Assembly: GCA_963727705.1 (NCBI GenBank)
Contig: CAVSHK010000028.1
Coordinates: 39,537-103,536 of the forward strand
DNA length: 64,000 bases
DNA from: an uncultured Bacteroidota bacterium
GTDB taxonomy: Bacteria > Bacteroidota > Bacteroidia > 2-12-FULL-35-15
Reading direction: 5' to 3'
Made by a program: the position numbers and the translations under genes. The notes under the pieces were generated by a model. The model was not told the origin of the DNA, made no database searches, and was given only the letters and a program-made list of their open reading frames with translations. Positions 5,842 to 11,074 of the stretch are shown here, piece by piece (within the stretch, counting starts at the first letter, position 1; every line of letters starts with the position of its first letter).

Positions 5842-6282
5842 TCATTTGTTTTTAAAATAATTAAAAATCGGATAATCCAGACTTATCTTTCCTGCTCCGT
5901 TGATAAGCAAAGTGAAAAGCATTACAAGATAATATAAGGGTATTTCATACCCATTATCTGCAGCGCTGAACCCATTTTGAAAATGCACAGTTTTTATTGC
6001 AACAAGCATTGTAATCATTAGTGGAATAGAAATAAAACGTGTGGCAAATCCAAATGTTAAAAATATGAACCCTAGTACTTCTGTATAAGTTGCCAAATAA
6101 GCACTTAATGTTGGGAATGGTATTTCAGAACTTGTAAACCATTCTGCAATAGCTCCTATATCTTTTATTTTCATCATTGCCGGTTCATAAAAACCATAAG
6201 CAAGCACTAATCGCATTACCAATAATGGGATGTCTTTAAGATGAGATAGTTTTTCTATACTATTAAAATATAAAGTTTTCAT
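5842..6282 (-). CDS. DoxX-family membrane protein. It is the last gene of the MNIO/bufferin-like operon, in the BufD-like position.
   Basis: A 146-aa protein with four transmembrane segments (LVMRLVLAYGFYEPAMMK...). It sits immediately downstream of the DUF2063 gene, as in buf operons. Confidence 0.75.
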   Translation of the reverse strand: MKTLYFNSIEKLSHLKDIPLLVMRLVLAYGFYEPAMMKIKDIGAIAEWFTSSEIPFPTLSAYLATYTEVLGFIFLTFGFATRFISIPLMITMLVAIKTVHFQNGFSAADNGYEIPLYYLVMLFTLLINGAGKISLDYPIFNYFKNK

Positions 6283-6353
6283 GGGTAAGATTTTTGTTTA
6301 TTGCTATCACGAATACACGAATATTTTTAATTCGTGTATTGGGATTGTTTATT

Positions 6354-7112
6354 TTAATTCTTAATTGCGTACCCGAGTACAAATTTTTTGTCCCTTAAAT
6401 CAGTTATAAAAGCAAGTGTAGTTTTGGTGAGTTCTTCTATATCAATATCACCAAATAATTGAGGTGCTTCATTCAGTAAAGTTTTAAGTGTTAAATTACC
6501 GGCATGTAACTGCTCAATGACCAATGCAAACCAAACGGAAATATCAATAAACTGAACTCTTCCTGTTTCATATTCTCTATATAACAAAATAAAATAATTA
6601 CCCATTTTTTCTTTAGCTGTAACAGGATTATATAAATGAATGGGGTATTTCAATTGCAATAACTTATGCTCAGGATTTACAATTAATAAATCATTCAACG
6701 TGTCGCCTATTATTTGGTAGGGTTTTGGAGAGATGTCTTCCATGTTGTAAATTACCATCTCTTCCCATTCAAATTTTAAAAGGTCGTTTAAAAAAGGTAA
6801 TTGAAATTTCTCTGCAAAATTTTCTGCAAGTGCATACTCATAAAATTCCCCTGCAATTTGCCACACCTGATAGCTTTGGCATTTATGATTCCTGAAAAAA
6901 TCATTCAGCATCACTGTCCATTTTTCAGCATCAATATATTTAAAGGCAATAGGAAATGCAGCTTCTATATTTTCTTCAATAACACTAAACACCAATCGTC
7001 TGTAATTTTGGATACGATTGGGTGTAACGCCGGGCAATGTTATTTCATCACCCGTACGGCAATACATCGCCATTGCACTTTGAATGGTTTTTGTTTCAGG
7101 CAACAAGCTCAT
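6354..7112 (-). CDS. DUF2063-family partner protein of the MNIO (MbnC/BufC-like)
   Basis: A 252-aa protein whose start overlaps the stop of the DUF692 gene by 17 bp. It has a YRRLVF...AFP N-terminal pattern and the size typical of DUF2063. Confidence 0.6.
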   Translation of the reverse strand: MSLLPETKTIQSAMAMYCRTGDEITLPGVTPNRIQNYRRLVFSVIEENIEAAFPIAFKYIDAEKWTVMLNDFFRNHKCQSYQVWQIAGEFYEYALAENFAEKFQLPFLNDLLKFEWEEMVIYNMEDISPKPYQIIGDTLNDLLIVNPEHKLLQLKYPIHLYNPVTAKEKMGNYFILLYREYETGRVQFIDISVWFALVIEQLHAGNLTLKTLLNEAPQLFGDIDIEELTKTTLAFITDLRDKKFVLGYAIKN

Positions 7113-7920
7113 TTTTTTTATTCCATTTTAAATTTGTAATAGAGCGTAAACGATTTAATTCACCATTCAATTCATCCATTTCGGGTATATTAAAATCTCT
7201 TTCCAGTAAAACCGGAACGGGTTTTATTTTTTCAATAGTCCATGCAAATAAATCATACACCGGATCAATAATGGCTTCACCATGCGTATCAATAATCAGG
7301 TCGGGAGCAACCTGCGTATGCCCTGCCATGTGTATATACGCTACTTTATCAAGTGGTAATTGTTCTATAAATGATTGTGCATGGTAATTATGATTGAATG
7401 CGTTTACGTAAACATTGTTTACGTCCAGCAGCAAGCTACATCCGGTTTCTTTTACAATCATGCTTATGAATTCTGCTTCTCCCATTTGGGCAGCAACAGG
7501 AGTGTAATAGGAAACATTTTCCATTACAAAAGGTCGTTCCAAATAATCTTGTACTTGTTTTATTTTTTCTATAACGTGTTTTGCCGCGTCTTCTCTGAAA
7601 GGTATTGGCAGTAAATCGTATAAATGTGCATTGTCGCATTTGGCAAAACTTAAGTGTTCCGAATATAGCTTAACGTTATATTCATCCAAAAACGATTTTA
7701 ATTTCTGCATGAAATCCATATCTAATGGGTCGGGACTTCCTATGGATAAAGACAAACCATGACAAAGTACAGGGTAACGTTCGGCTATTTTATGAATTTG
7801 TTTTTTTGAATTGCCACCCAAATTCATCCAGTTTTCGGGAGCAAATTCTACAAAGTCGGGGTTGATGCCGCCATTAATAAATTCGTCAGCAAAGTCTCGT
7901 CTATATCCTAATCCTATCAT
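7096..7920 (-). CDS. DUF692/UPF0276 multinuclear non-heme iron oxidase (MNIO; MbnB/BufB-like)
   Basis: MIGLGYRRDF..., HGLSLSIGSPDPLDMDFMQKLKSFLDEY, HLSFAKCDNAHLYDLLPIPF and FVMENVSYY form the TIM-barrel motif set of DUF692. Confidence 0.85.
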   Translation of the reverse strand: MIGLGYRRDFADEFINGGINPDFVEFAPENWMNLGGNSKKQIHKIAERYPVLCHGLSLSIGSPDPLDMDFMQKLKSFLDEYNVKLYSEHLSFAKCDNAHLYDLLPIPFREDAAKHVIEKIKQVQDYLERPFVMENVSYYTPVAAQMGEAEFISMIVKETGCSLLLDVNNVYVNAFNHNYHAQSFIEQLPLDKVAYIHMAGHTQVAPDLIIDTHGEAIIDPVYDLFAWTIEKIKPVPVLLERDFNIPEMDELNGELNRLRSITNLKWNKKNELVA

Positions 7921-7971
7921 GTTGGTTAATTTTTTAAGAAAAAGGGAGGCTATTCACCCCCCTTCATTTAA

Positions 7972-8289
7972 TTATTTCTTTTTATCACCACACGATGCGT
8001 CTTTCTTTTTGTCACCACATGATGCGTCTTTTTTCTTATCTCCGCATTTTCCTTCTCCGCATTTTCCTTCTTTTCCTTTTGCATGCTTTGTTTTAGCAGA
8101 GTCAGCACATTTTAATTCAATGGCTTTTAATGCAGAAGCAGCCTCGTTAAGCAAAGAACTTCTTACTTCAGCTCCTGATCCAAGAGAGGAATAGTTGCTC
8201 AATGTAGAAGCGTTAGCGCTGATGTTTGACAAGCCGATAAAGGCACTTGCGATTAATGAACCTGCAAGGATTGATTTTTTGTTTTCCAT
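7972..8289 (-). CDS. Secreted Cys-repeat RiPP precursor peptide (bufferin-like, BufA position)
   Basis: Sec signal peptide MENKKSILAGSLIASAFIGLSNISANA. A predicted amphipathic helix follows, then a Lys-rich tail: KCADSAKTKHAKGKEGKCGEGKCGDKKKDASCGDKKKDASCGDKKK. That tail has 5 Cys and is encoded by 2x15-bp and 2x27-bp tandem DNA repeats. Confidence 0.6.
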   Translation of the reverse strand: MENKKSILAGSLIASAFIGLSNISANASTLSNYSSLGSGAEVRSSLLNEAASALKAIELKCADSAKTKHAKGKEGKCGEGKCGDKKKDASCGDKKKDASCGDKKK

Positions 8290-8368
8290 TTTTTTAAGGT
8301 TTTTAAAAAGATTAATATTTGTTTATACCGAGATAGTAGAAACTCTTTTTAAAACCTTACAGAAAATT

Positions 8369-8653
8369 TTAAATATTTTTAAAATTTTCTTCAATGGTTT
8401 TCTGGAAGCGTATTTTAGAGGTATCGGAAAGTTTAAATTTAGAAATATTATTTTTAAGTGCGTTTTCAATTAAGCGACTTTGTTGCTGATACCTCAAACA
8501 ATTTATACAAATTTTCAGGTGTATTTGTAATTGTATTTTTTCGCGAAATGATAAGGGTTCTGTATAGCCCTTCTCCATAAGAAAAGTAGCCTTTTTGCAA
8601 AACAAAGTGGCATCTTTAAAAGTAAAAACAATACGATTGATAACCGTTTTCAT
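8369..8653 (-). CDS. Anti-sigma factor (zf-HC2-type), partner of the upstream ECF sigma
   Basis: A 94-aa protein with HLKICINC (HxxxCxxC). It lies 3 bp downstream of the sigma gene. Confidence 0.55.
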   Translation of the reverse strand: MKTVINRIVFTFKDATLFCKKATFLMEKGYTEPLSFREKIQLQIHLKICINCLRYQQQSRLIENALKNNISKFKLSDTSKIRFQKTIEENFKNI

Positions 8654-8656
8654 TCC

Positions 8657-9241
8657 TTATGTATTTATCCAATTTTTTTCAATACAAACTCTTAACAAAA
8701 GTTTGGCTCTGTGAATAAGCACCCAGTAGTTAGTAGAAGTAATGTTCAATTCCTTGCAAACAGTTTCTGTTTTATCTTCCTGTATCAGTTTCAAGTAAAT
8801 TAATTGTTTCTGGTTTTTTGGAAGTTTGTCCATACATTTTTCCAGAATGGCTGACAGCTCTTTGTTTTCAATGGAGTTGGAATAATCTATTTCCCATTTA
8901 TGAGGAGCTGTACTTTTTTTCCATTCACCTTCTTCATCAAAATAATTATCTAAAAAGTCGTCGTCCTCTATACTATACTCCGAGTTATTTACTTCGTATT
9001 TGGTGGAGGCTTTTTTGTAATGATCGGCTATTTTATTTTTCAGAATGGAATACAACCAGGTTCTTTCTGAACTTTCGCCTTTAAAATTAGGAAGTGATTT
9101 TAATCCTGCCAAAAATGTTTCCTGAACTAAATCTTCTGCTAAAATAGTGTCACTTGTTTTGGCTTTAGCGTAACCAAATAATTCATCAGCATATCTGTTG
9201 ACCCATTTATAAGGATTAATTTTATTTTCGTCTATTACCAT
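8657..9241 (-). CDS. ECF (sigma-70 family) RNA polymerase sigma factor
   Basis: Region-2 motif AEDLVQETFLAGLKSLPNFKGESSERTWLYSILKNKIADHYKK and a region-4 HTH (KQLIYLKLIQEDKTETVCKELNITSTNYWVLIHRAKLLLR). Confidence 0.85.
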   Translation of the reverse strand: MVIDENKINPYKWVNRYADELFGYAKAKTSDTILAEDLVQETFLAGLKSLPNFKGESSERTWLYSILKNKIADHYKKASTKYEVNNSEYSIEDDDFLDNYFDEEGEWKKSTAPHKWEIDYSNSIENKELSAILEKCMDKLPKNQKQLIYLKLIQEDKTETVCKELNITSTNYWVLIHRAKLLLRVCIEKNWINT

Positions 9242-9285: not shown

Positions 9286-9690
9286 TTACCATTTACTAAT
9301 AATTGTTGCATTTCCTTTTATCAAACCTCTGCAATTTTCGCTTTTGCAAATACACAGAAAAGGTTCATTCATGAGCGTTTCAGTAGTTTCATAATCAAAT
9401 GTTAATTCTTCGTTTGGTAAAATTGTTCTTAAGGCAATCTGTTGTAATTTTTTTGTATCAATAAACGTGTTAGGGTTACAGCTATGGTTCAAATGAGGCC
9501 ATACGAGTTGCTCCAACAATTGTTCATCCAAATCGAATGGATGCAAATGTTCGATTTTATTGAGTTGAATAGAGAATTTATCGGGATATAACAACACCTT
9601 TCCTTTAAAGTGCATAATAATCGTACCTGCTGCTATTTCAGCTGTTGATACTACTTTTTTAGAACGTTGTTCTTTATATACGCAAAACAC
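9286..9690 (-). CDS. SET-domain protein (putative protein-lysine methyltransferase)
   Basis: NHSCNPN and ELTFDY motifs, plus a Cys-rich post-SET region (CICKSENC). Confidence 0.7.
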   Translation of the reverse strand: MFCVYKEQRSKKVVSTAEIAAGTIIMHFKGKVLLYPDKFSIQLNKIEHLHPFDLDEQLLEQLVWPHLNHSCNPNTFIDTKKLQQIALRTILPNEELTFDYETTETLMNEPFLCICKSENCRGLIKGNATIISKW

Positions 9691-9744: not shown

Positions 9745-11074
9745 TTAATTTCTTCTATACGTTCTTATTTTAGCGTCCTTCCCTTTCAATTTTTCTTTTT
9801 GTGCAGGACCACCTAAATTCACTTTTTTATTTTTTTCTTTTTTCTCATGAAATGCAGCACCCGGAACATAATTATCTTTTGATTTTTTAGGCTTTATTTT
9901 GCTTCCTATTTTAGGTAATTCGTCGTCGGTAAGCATTTTAGAGACTACCACTTTTTCCGGCAACGGTTCATTAGGAATAGCTTTATTCATTACCATTTCA
10001 ATAGCCTCTTGATATTCCTGCTCTGCTTCATTAATAAATGTAATGGCTACACCGGCTTTATTTGCCCTGCCTGTTCTTCCTATGCGATGTATATAATCTT
10101 CAGGGGTTTCGGGAGTATCAAAATTTACAACATGGGTAACATCCGAAATATCCAATCCTCTGGCAAGAATATCTGTGGCAATTAATACGCGTTTAGAACC
10201 ATCGTGAAATTGCTTTAATGAATTGATGCGCGCCGTTTGCGATAAATTAGAATGTATTACAGCAACACCTTCAGGAAATTTAGGTTTTATATGATCGAAC
10301 AAATCATCTGCTAATTTTTTTGTTCCAACAAACACCAACACTTTACTCATGCTATCATCATTTTTTAAAAGAAATTCCAGCAAATTTACCTTGGTGTAAA
10401 AATTAGGAACATGATAACAGAGTTGAATAATCTTTTCCAACGGAGTACCGTGTGGAGCTACTTCAATTTTTTCGGGTTGATAAAAATACTTGGCAATTAC
10501 CTGTTCTATTTCCTCACTCATCGTTGCCGAAAACATCAGGTTTTGTCGCTTAACAGGCAATGTTTCCAAAAAACTTAATAACTGTTGACGAAATCCCAAA
10601 CTCAACATTTGGTCAACTTCATCAATCACCAGCCTGTTTAATGTCTTTTAATCGTAACAAGCCTGTAAGTGCCAAATCAACAAGTCTTCCGGGAGTTGCA
10701 ACAATTATGTCCACTCCGTTATACACCAGTTGTTTTTGTGTATTAATATTGGTTCCTCCATACACTGCCAAAAAACGAATGCTGGTATAAGTACTTAGTT
10801 TTTCAATCTCTTTTACAATTTGCAAAACAAGTTCACGGGTGGGCACAATCACCAATACACGCGGGTGCCGTTGATCCGAATATTTTAACTGCCGCAAAAT
10901 AGGTAATAAATAAGCAAATGTTTTACCTGTCCCGGTCTGCGCAATTCCTACCATATCTTTGCCCGACATAATAATGGGAAATGCCATTTCCTGAATGGGT
11001 GTGGCTTGTACATACCCTAAATCGTCTAATGCGTTGCTTAATGGTTTGTTTAAATTTAGTTTTTCGAACGACAC
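9745..11074 (-). CDS. DEAD-box ATP-dependent RNA helicase, split into two ORFs by a single-base insertion at about 10625-10632
   Basis: The N-terminal part has the Q-motif and AQTGTGKT. The C-terminal part starts at (L)VIDEVDQM and carries SAT and HRIGRTGR. The sequence caggctggtgattgatga reads as cag-ctg-gtg-att-gat-gaa once one g is removed. Confidence 0.85.

Follow-up and report, generated by a model that had tools for sequence, protein, structure and literature searches.

A probable copper-binding peptide precursor of the EGKCG family, with an atypical modular core, in an uncultured Bacteroidota bacterium

The precursor gene and its cluster

The stretch of DNA analyzed here (“the window”) comprises 64,000 nucleotides from an uncultured Bacteroidota bacterium (contig CAVSHK010000028.1 of assembly GCA_963727705.1, positions 39,537 to 103,536). 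On its minus strand, at 7972-8289, lies an hvfA-like gene, found in the list of open reading frames and recognized by homologues and synteny, whose product has 105 amino acids (stop codon at 7972-7974) and a C-terminal part made of Cys-Gly repeats. [quoted passage not shown] The frame is real, and its sequence is consistent with that description. We conclude that the protein is a divergent, atypical Bacteroidota member of a family already described, the EGKCG precursors (HvfA/oxazolin, “captophorin”), that its repeats are the known modular core of that family, and that the genome encoding it has a Sphingobacteriia-like affinity. It is very probably matured to a copper-binding RiPP, by the mechanism and with the mode of core evolution proposed below.

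The 105-residue product (MENKKSILAGSLIASAFIGLSNISANASTLSNYSSLGSGAEVRSSLLNEAASALKAIELKCADSAKTKHAKGKEGKCGEGKCGDKKKDASCGDKKKDASCGDKKK) is represented in public data by an exact match, P0123. It begins with a predicted Sec signal peptide (residues 1-27, MENKKSILAGSLIASAFIGLSNISANA; 8209-8289, minus strand), judged by inspection from its KK n-region, a hydrophobic core of 15 residues and an AxA site that would be cleaved after A-N-A; K4, A14 and A16 of this segment are conserved among 52 homologues (alignment A2). The leader also carries the motif LGSGAEVR (residues 36-43; 8161-8184, minus strand), in which L36, G37 and R43 are invariant across the same 52 sequences and G39 is at least 90% conserved; we infer that it contacts the recognition element of the HvfC-type partner. 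The first cysteine, C61 in the context ELKCA (8107-8109, minus strand), is invariant in the family; at least 90% of homologues have Gly as the next residue, and the window protein has Ala there (alignment A2). Read from the translation, the C-terminus runs ...KCADS...KEGKCGEGKCGDKKKDASCGDKKKDASCGDKKK. Repeat finders resolve it into two EGKCG units (8041-8070), two DASCGDKKK units (7975-8028) and a degenerate third unit of the latter kind, EGKCGDKKK (8029-8055), all read from the minus strand. As the first-pass annotation had it, every repeat cysteine stands in a K/S-C-G-D/E context and the non-repeat cysteine in K-C-A-D, which makes K-C-A once, K-C-G twice and S-C-G twice for the five core cysteines. 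A Pfam scan of the precursor returned no match, DUF2282 included. Given an alignment of 52 sequences, AlphaFold2 reached a mean pLDDT of 50.5 (below 50 in the core) and a pTM of 0.19; the core is thus predicted to be disordered, with a low-confidence leader helix at residues 39-60 as the sole predicted secondary structure.

EGKCG occurs twice, adjacently, at residues 74-83, which is the canonical double motif and the minimum that the family signature asks for. The first-pass annotation held that such a repeat is not a described bufferin core. This was mistaken, because EGKCGEGKCG is the published signature of the oxazolin/EGKCG chalkophores: it is by such repeats that the HvfA/oxazolin or “Buf_EGKCG” family is defined (PMC11252979, PMC12452194), and NedA, fontiphorin, gonophorin and bulbicupramide belong to it as well (PMC13097082, PMC12538549, PMC13056109). 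Variation in the number of repeats is likewise on record. The “Buf_EGKCG/oxazolin” family counts ~2,000 proteins of 31-506 residues with a variable number of repeats, mostly from Pseudomonadota (PMC12452194), and within the genus Microbulbifer the EGKCG units hold five to eight cysteines (PMC12538549).

The precursor gene stands first in an operon of the hvfA-hvfB-hvfC-hvfX type. A co-directional cluster on the minus strand (5842-9241) comprises genes for an ECF (extracytoplasmic function) sigma factor, an anti-sigma factor, the precursor, an MNIO, a DUF2063 partner and a DoxX protein; published “Buf_EGKCG/oxazolin” clusters hold precursor, MNIO, DUF2063 and DoxX genes (PMC12452194). The hvfB-type MNIO (DUF692) maturase (7096-7920, minus strand; 274 amino acids) matches Pfam MbnB_TglH_ChrH at E = 1e-101 and passes NCBIfam model NF003818 for HvfB (383.9 bits; cut-off 360), so the precursor is linked to an MNIO of the HvfB type; against the MbnB model it stays far below the cut-off (56 bits; cut-off 325). 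Its hvfC-type partner (6354-7112, minus strand) passes Pfam DUF2063 (PF09836; 57.1, cut-off 27.2) and NGO1945_C (PF22106; 37.7, cut-off 27) and stays below the cut-off of the NCBIfam HvfC model. The hvfX-type DoxX membrane protein (5842-6282, minus strand; Pfam DoxX) passes NF050144 for HvfX with 130.6 bits (cut-off 80). The MNIO and DUF2063 genes share a 17-nt overlap (7096-7112, minus strand), which is found in relatives as well (L081, 2679-2695, for example) and suggests translational coupling of the two maturase subunits.

Might the protein instead be a Buf1- or Buf2-type bufferin whose core happens to be unusual, which is what the label in the first-pass annotation implied? The gene set is the same, including a sigma factor as in Buf1 clusters, and the score of the MNIO against the BufB equivalog model is strong. 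That score is nevertheless sub-threshold (287 bits; cut-off 310), while the same enzyme passes the HvfB model. Further, the precursor has neither DUF2282 nor any other Pfam domain, its EGKCG-type core sets it apart from Buf2 (6/12-Cys domain), and EGKCG is the signature of the sister family. We consider this reading hardly credible at all, and at the level of family models it is already refuted.

The assignment to the EGKCG family also has the support of homologues. A phmmer-type search (E<=0.01) found 318 homologues of the precursor; among the 120 matches listed, lengths range from 93 to 177 amino acids and the sources are Bacteroidota, Ignavibacteriota and Chlorobiota genomes together with metagenomes. 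From GTDB species representatives, 80 related loci were recovered through their MNIO. In 70 of them a precursor homologue is encoded directly upstream of the MNIO, and in the 55 loci with full flanks a homologue of the DUF2063 partner is always found downstream (55/55) and an HvfX/DoxX homologue frequently (34/55). The sister protein P0002 aligns with the window precursor over its full length (phmmer E = 1.9e-39; 77% identity) and is encoded in a syntenic locus whose MNIO is 80% identical to the window's at the DNA level. The model NF050137.2 (“HvfA family”) is matched at E<=0.01 by 48 of the 52 aligned homologues, and homologue P0101 is annotated at its source as an HvfA family protein. By descent, then, the window precursor is a homologue of proteins that score above the cut-off of NF050137.2.

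The homologues share one anatomy, in which a signal peptide, an invariant L-G-x-G-x-x-x-R leader motif and an invariant first cysteine precede a variable array of units. In 126 of them the core holds 3-9 cysteines (mode 5), with Lys before the cysteine in 90% of cases and Gly after it in 98%. About 35% of these cysteines are “single”, having no partner five residues off; single units of ~9 residues are common and often stand in tandem, as in KDAKCGEKKSKDAKCGEKKSKDGKCGEKK of locus L040. The window's 27-bp unit is a variant of this single-unit type, odd in having Ser before the cysteine. S-C-G is found in only 10 of 129 sequences, four of which come from the window's own cluster.

Repeat units and their evolution

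According to the first-pass annotation, the 3′ end of the gene consists of two perfect tandem pairs. The claim stands for the 15-bp pair: the unit GAAGGAAAATGCGGA occurs twice in the coding register (8070-8041) with zero mismatches, and Tandem Repeats Finder reports a 15-bp array of 2.2 copies at 100% (8039-8071). The 27-bp pair is perfect as peptide only. In the register then chosen, CGDKKKDAS (8046-8020 versus 8019-7993), the DNA copies are mismatched at 6 of 27 positions (78% identity); in the best register, DASCGDKKK (8028-8002 versus 8001-7975), they are mismatched at two (93%), both synonymous (TCA/TCG and GAC/GAT). The third unit, EGKCGDKKK (8055-8029), is 67% identical at the DNA level, and Tandem Repeats Finder and a further repeat finder place the whole 27-bp array at 7975-8040, with 2.4 copies and 87-93% identity.

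The DNA perfection of the 15-bp pair is no more than codon usage predicts. In 71 related precursors there are 61 adjacent pairs of identical xxKCG-xxKCG peptides, and the window's alone is DNA-perfect; the others are mismatched at 1-4 of 15 nucleotides (mean 2.7), with one mismatch in 5 pairs, two in 19, three in 23 and four in 13. Under independent codon draws a pair is perfect with a probability of ~0.022-0.025, so that ~1.5 perfect pairs are expected in 61, and one is seen. The first codons of the two units are GAC/GAG in the closest relatives and GAC/GAA in the outgroup; the identity of the window's two units therefore came about by one point change. Because a DNA-perfect pair arises at the chance rate and by one substitution, the EGKCG double motif is an old, selected peptide feature rather than a fresh duplication. 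The peptide motif itself recurs in hundreds of homologues and is far beyond chance. A process of concerted evolution or gene conversion that would keep the EGKCG units identical in DNA was also considered, and it was rejected because the differences between unit pairs, which family-wide amount to 2-4 of 15 nucleotides, match independent codon use.

The 27-bp pair has two mismatched codons where independent draws would give 4.4 (P(<=2) = 0.08), so that the evidence for a recent origin is weak. Of the mismatches between the copies, TCA/TCG is common to the window and P0001 lineages, and each lineage has gained one synonymous difference of its own. The duplication thus predates the split of the two lineages, and it has been stable since then, under purifying selection. 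The DASCGDKKK units are specific to the window/P0001 clade; the sister clade (P0002/P0126) lacks them and has a canonical second KDGKCGEGKCG. The two Ser-Cys-Gly units are a clade-specific replacement of the second double motif, by which the total was kept at five cysteines.

Elsewhere in the family, whole units come and go. P0126 (110 amino acids) and P0127 (105 amino acids; found on 3 contigs from 3 samples) belong to one 90%-identity cluster and are distinguished by an exact 15-nt deletion, GGGAAATGTGGTGAA (GKCGE). Loci L039 and L050 are one KDGKCGEKKA unit apart, with MNIOs that are 98.9% identical. Among species pairs, the cysteine count differs in 1 of 25 pairs with an MNIO identity of at least 95%, in 2 of 32 at 90-95%, in 9 of 18 at 85-90% and in ~80% of pairs below 80%, although the pairs are phylogenetically non-independent and Chitinophaga, in which all of ~16 species have four cysteines, dominates the close ones. 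A closer pair had seemed to prove strain-level variation in copy number: over 510 nt, L095 (1501-1830) and L096 (1501-1881) are 100% identical apart from one exact 51-nt unit (17 amino acids, AKGKEGKCGEGKCGEKK), and hold two and three units, respectively. This case was given less weight, since L095 is a Logan contig assembled from short reads and the exact stretches that units 2 and 3 have in common exceed the length of commonly used assembly k-mers; it reflects either strain-level copy-number variation or a short-read collapse of the repeat.

These comparisons bear on the idea, raised in the first-pass annotation, that slipped-strand expansion and contraction would change the number of modifiable cysteines. 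In its strong form the idea makes the window's gene a contingency (hypermutable) locus, at which slippage at the 15-bp and 27-bp repeats often changes the cysteine number and so tunes metal valency within populations. The locus does hold a perfect 15-bp tandem pair and a 27-bp pair of 93% identity, and unit indels do occur elsewhere in the family. Yet the arrays have only 2.2 and 2.4 copies, far from the long homogeneous tracts of contingency loci; the perfection of the 15-bp pair is at the chance rate, with relatives differing there by point changes; and the 27-bp duplication predates the window/P0001 split, with a single synonymous difference added per lineage. Nor is length polymorphism seen among near-identical sequences. 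The window protein forms a 90%-identity cluster with P0001, P0121 and P0122, all of 105 amino acids and of one layout in five distinct sequences on at least 24 contigs from several metagenomes (22 of them for P0001 alone), and variants with one or three copies of DASCGDKKK are absent from the best matches out of 5.8 billion protein clusters. The uniform four cysteines of Chitinophaga point the same way, and the sole near-identical pair that differs by a unit is the one with the possible repeat collapse in L095. Frequent slippage at the window's locus is therefore highly improbable. What survives of the prediction is its comparative part, in that unit counts are not identical everywhere among orthologues. 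Unit number is labile at the level of the family, on species-to-genus timescales, and appears stable at the window locus.

A putative sigma/anti-sigma module

The first gene of the cluster (8657-9241, minus strand) encodes an ECF-type sigma-70 factor with the Pfam domains Sigma70_r2 and Sigma70_r4_2, and it scores 80.5 bits against NCBIfam sigma70-ECF (cut-off 42.9). The next (8369-8653, minus strand) encodes a putative anti-sigma factor of 94 amino acids, recognized from its H-x3-C-x2-C motif (HLKICINC) and from NF052368, against which it scores 47.7 bits (cut-off 50; E = 1e-12). Upstream homologues on the same strand are found in 30 (sigma) and 24 (anti-sigma) of the 55 related loci with full flanks, so that such a pair stands beside the EGKCG cluster in about half of these Bacteroidota, Ignavibacteriota and Chlorobiota loci. 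In L095 and L096 (1894-2805 = sigma and anti-sigma genes), the order is precursor, sigma, anti-sigma, MNIO. In a survey of MNIO clusters, sigma and NrsF genes were reported for Buf1 clusters only (PMC12452194).

Between the anti-sigma and precursor genes, a promoter-like motif, TGTAAGGTTTT-N12-CTACTAT (8336-8361, minus strand), is conserved across six lineages with MNIOs ~80-95% identical to that of the window (alignment A4). The motif may be a target of the ECF sigma factor encoded nearby. The window holds this one site and no second copy, for instance ahead of the sigma gene, where it would be a sign of autoregulation. A scan for sigma-70 promoters was uninformative, as expected for Bacteroidota (13 sites versus 16 expected from shuffles). 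Downstream of the precursor gene, in the gap before the MNIO gene, a terminator-like hairpin followed by a T run (7941-7965, minus strand) has a folding energy of -15.5 kcal/mol (z = -3.1), and relatives retain a hairpin in this gap whose stem and loop differ in sequence. The site probably acts as a leaky or partial terminator, or as an attenuator, that sets the ratio of substrate to enzyme. Taken together, the sigma/anti-sigma pair, the upstream motif and the hairpin suggest stress-induced transcription, with substrate made in excess of enzyme.

Two genes further upstream were also noted. Immediately upstream of the sigma gene lies a SET-domain gene (9286-9690, minus strand; Pfam SET, E = 8e-12), which occupies the same position in the closest relatives (L081, L082, L084 and L086) and is absent in L090. 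A DEAD-box helicase gene (9745-11074, minus strand) is split into two open reading frames in different frames, of 150 and 294 amino acids, with the junction near 10622-10632. The break cuts through the Pfam DEAD domain (positions 1-111 in one frame, 123-167 in the other), and the relatives L082 and L090 have a single 442-residue product. The split is an apparent frameshift, attributable to a pseudogene or to a sequencing error.

Relation to known copper-binding RiPPs and proposed mechanism

The closest characterized system is oxazolin. In nontypeable Haemophilus influenzae, HvfA combines a signal peptide with three AEGKCGEGKCG repeats, and HvfBC converts its six repeat cysteines, at -4 Da each, to heterocycles that bind about one Cu(I) per pair (PMC11252979). 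The HvfA/HvfBC/HvfX system and the window have in common the set of precursor, MNIO, DUF2063/RRE (RiPP recognition element) partner and DoxX genes, a precursor of ~100 amino acids that opens with a Sec signal peptide and bears EGKCGEGKCG toward its C-terminus, and an MNIO that passes the HvfB model. Unlike HvfA, which has its three repeats and two N-terminal disulphide cysteines, the window protein has one double motif, the invariant upstream K-C-A cysteine and two S-C-G-D-K-K-K units; its host is a member of the Bacteroidota rather than the Pseudomonadota, and a sigma/anti-sigma pair is attached to its cluster.

Fontiphorin (FonA/FonBC), gonophorin and the “captophorin” Lys-Cys group (PMC13097082) resemble the window protein in their repeated five-residue Lys-Cys-Gly units, which there become 5-thiooxazoles. 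In oxazolin, fontiphorin, gonophorin, bulbicupramide and the bufferins, the modification has been reinterpreted as 5-thiooxazole (PMC13097082, bioRxiv 2026.06.05.730506, bioRxiv 2025.12.15.693703). The substrate rules of FonBC, which call for a small residue after the cysteine, fit all five contexts of the window protein: the Lys before the cysteine can be exchanged for Ala, Arg or Thr, and the Gly behind it for Ala only (PMC13097082). Since FonBC tolerates such replacements, S-C-G and K-C-A are plausible substrates too. FonA, however, has seven sites, and in vitro FonBC required a pair of adjacent repeats; in the window protein, two cysteines lie in isolated units 9 residues apart with Ser before each. 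By analogy, then, all five contexts are plausible substrates, with the isolated S-C-G units uncertain.

Bulbicupramide (MmrA) of Microbulbifer (PMC12538549) likewise joins a conserved leader to a variable cassette core with Lys-rich spacers. Between congeners the cysteine number ranges over 5-8, which is the kind of variation that the first-pass annotation predicted, and Cu(I) is bound selectively. Its cassettes are all di-Cys, however; no sigma/anti-sigma genes are described for it, and its host is gammaproteobacterial. The bufferins Buf1 (DUF2282) and Buf2 (PMC11626156, PMC12452194) share with the window closely related MNIO and partner proteins, and they are Sec-exported, copper-protective and modified to 5-thiooxazole, with sigma and anti-sigma genes in Buf1 clusters. 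They differ in their folded, non-repetitive precursors, which have two modified cysteines flanked by a disulphide, and in an anti-sigma factor of the NrsF type, as opposed to the small HxxxCxxC protein of the window. More remote is methanobactin (MbnA/MbnBC), in which Cu(I)-chelating heterocycles are also made by an MNIO from cysteines of a ribosomal peptide, but by oxazolone-thioamide chemistry, on a short, leader-cleaved precursor without a Sec signal and with a distantly related enzyme.

From these parallels, and from homologues for which leader recognition, cysteine oxidation, export and Cu(I) binding have been shown, we propose the following mechanism. The HvfC-like partner would bind the leader, probably through the invariant LGSGAEVR region, and the iron-dependent HvfB-like MNIO would then oxidize cysteines in X-C-G/A contexts to 5-thiooxazoles, at -4 Da each, as its homologues do. 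The product would be exported by Sec and its signal peptide removed after ANA. In the periplasm, the thiooxazoles may chelate Cu(I), at about one copper per pair of heterocycles, and so buffer copper. The adjacent ECF sigma/anti-sigma pair probably drives expression, with the leaky terminator favoring substrate over enzymes. The core itself would be modular and would combine units of two kinds, the double KxGKCGEGKCG and a single one of ~9 residues, K/D-x-x-C-G-D/E-K-K, which are gained and lost by in-frame duplication and deletion on species-to-genus timescales. In the window's clade, an ancestral second double unit would have been swapped for two single Ser-Cys-Gly copies, the layout remaining stable since.

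A different use of the repeats is conceivable, in which the precursor is a multi-core cassette: the DKKK spacers would be protease sites releasing several short thiooxazole peptides, and repeat number would set dose instead of valency. Triple Lys flanks the MmrA cassettes (PMC12538549), the fontiphorin study leaves host-protease processing of EGKCG products open (PMC13097082), and the window's core is predicted to be disordered. Nonetheless, a protease gene is absent from the cluster and from the related loci, native Microbulbifer extracts lacked detectable peptides of bulbicupramide size (PMC12538549), and oxazolin behaves as an intact polypeptide from which the signal peptide alone is removed. 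We regard the multi-core arrangement as improbable.

Several points weigh against reading the window protein as an EGKCG-family precursor that acts as proposed. It scores 14.4 bits against NF050137.2 (“KCGExKCG_twice”, the HvfA family domain; cut-off 19.5) and 17.5 bits (E = 0.005) against NF050188, the H. influenzae HvfA equivalog (cut-off 95), and it is thus no orthologue-level match to that protein. The partner protein, with 127 bits, is below the cut-off of 142 for NCBIfam HvfC. All characterized members of the EGKCG family come from Pseudomonadota and none from Bacteroidota. A substrate with one EGKCG repeat was left unmodified by FonBC in vitro (PMC13097082), and because of this the enzyme may act poorly on isolated S-C-G units. 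The case for the signal peptide, for recognition of the leader and for control by the sigma factor comes from sequence only. As to the first of these points, the window protein falls below the cut-off of NF050137.2 because the second KCGExKCG has been lost; P0001, of the same clade, also stays below (8.9), while P0002 (43.9) and P0127 (21.4) pass. The replacement of one double motif is thus why the clade escapes automatic naming, and in public records its members are annotated “hypothetical” or “low-complexity protein”.

The first-pass annotation was, in sum, largely right in what it observed and half right in its interpretation: orthologues do vary in copy number, though slowly and not at the window's locus, and such variation had been reported before. 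Its claim to novelty was wrong, the protein being a member of the EGKCG/HvfA chalkophores and not a bufferin whose core is undescribed. The protein represents neither a new class nor a new mechanism, repeat-number variation in the EGKCG family having been published before. Only three traits are unusual: a double motif has given way to two Ser-Cys-Gly single units, the first site is Cys-Ala, and a sigma/anti-sigma module is attached. It is conceivable, if rather unlikely, that these traits mark a functionally distinct core variant, in which the i/i+5 bidentate KCGEGKCG has been traded for two S-C-G sites 9 residues apart plus a Cys-Ala first site, and the cluster has been placed under a dedicated ECF sigma/zinc-finger-type anti-sigma pair through the TGTAAGG...CTACTAT promoter. 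If so, and if all cysteines are modified, 2-(Ser-derived) thiooxazoles would result, and Cu(I) would be bound with another geometry or stoichiometry; or else the sites would be free thiols. Dedicated sigma/anti-sigma wiring would be new for EGKCG clusters, for which none is described.

The practical value of these findings lies mainly in annotation, given that the clade sits just below NCBI's model for the HvfA family. The papers cited here treat the EGKCG family as mostly pseudomonadotal or survey that phylum alone, leaving the Bacteroidota/Ignavibacteriota/Chlorobiota branch undiscussed; among the EGKCG chalkophores this is a large branch, and none of its members has been characterized by experiment. 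Its natural series of cores, with 3-9 cysteines, double and single units, and K-, S-, T- and A-Cys contexts, could serve as a substrate panel for the specificity of the MNIOs and for copper stoichiometry.

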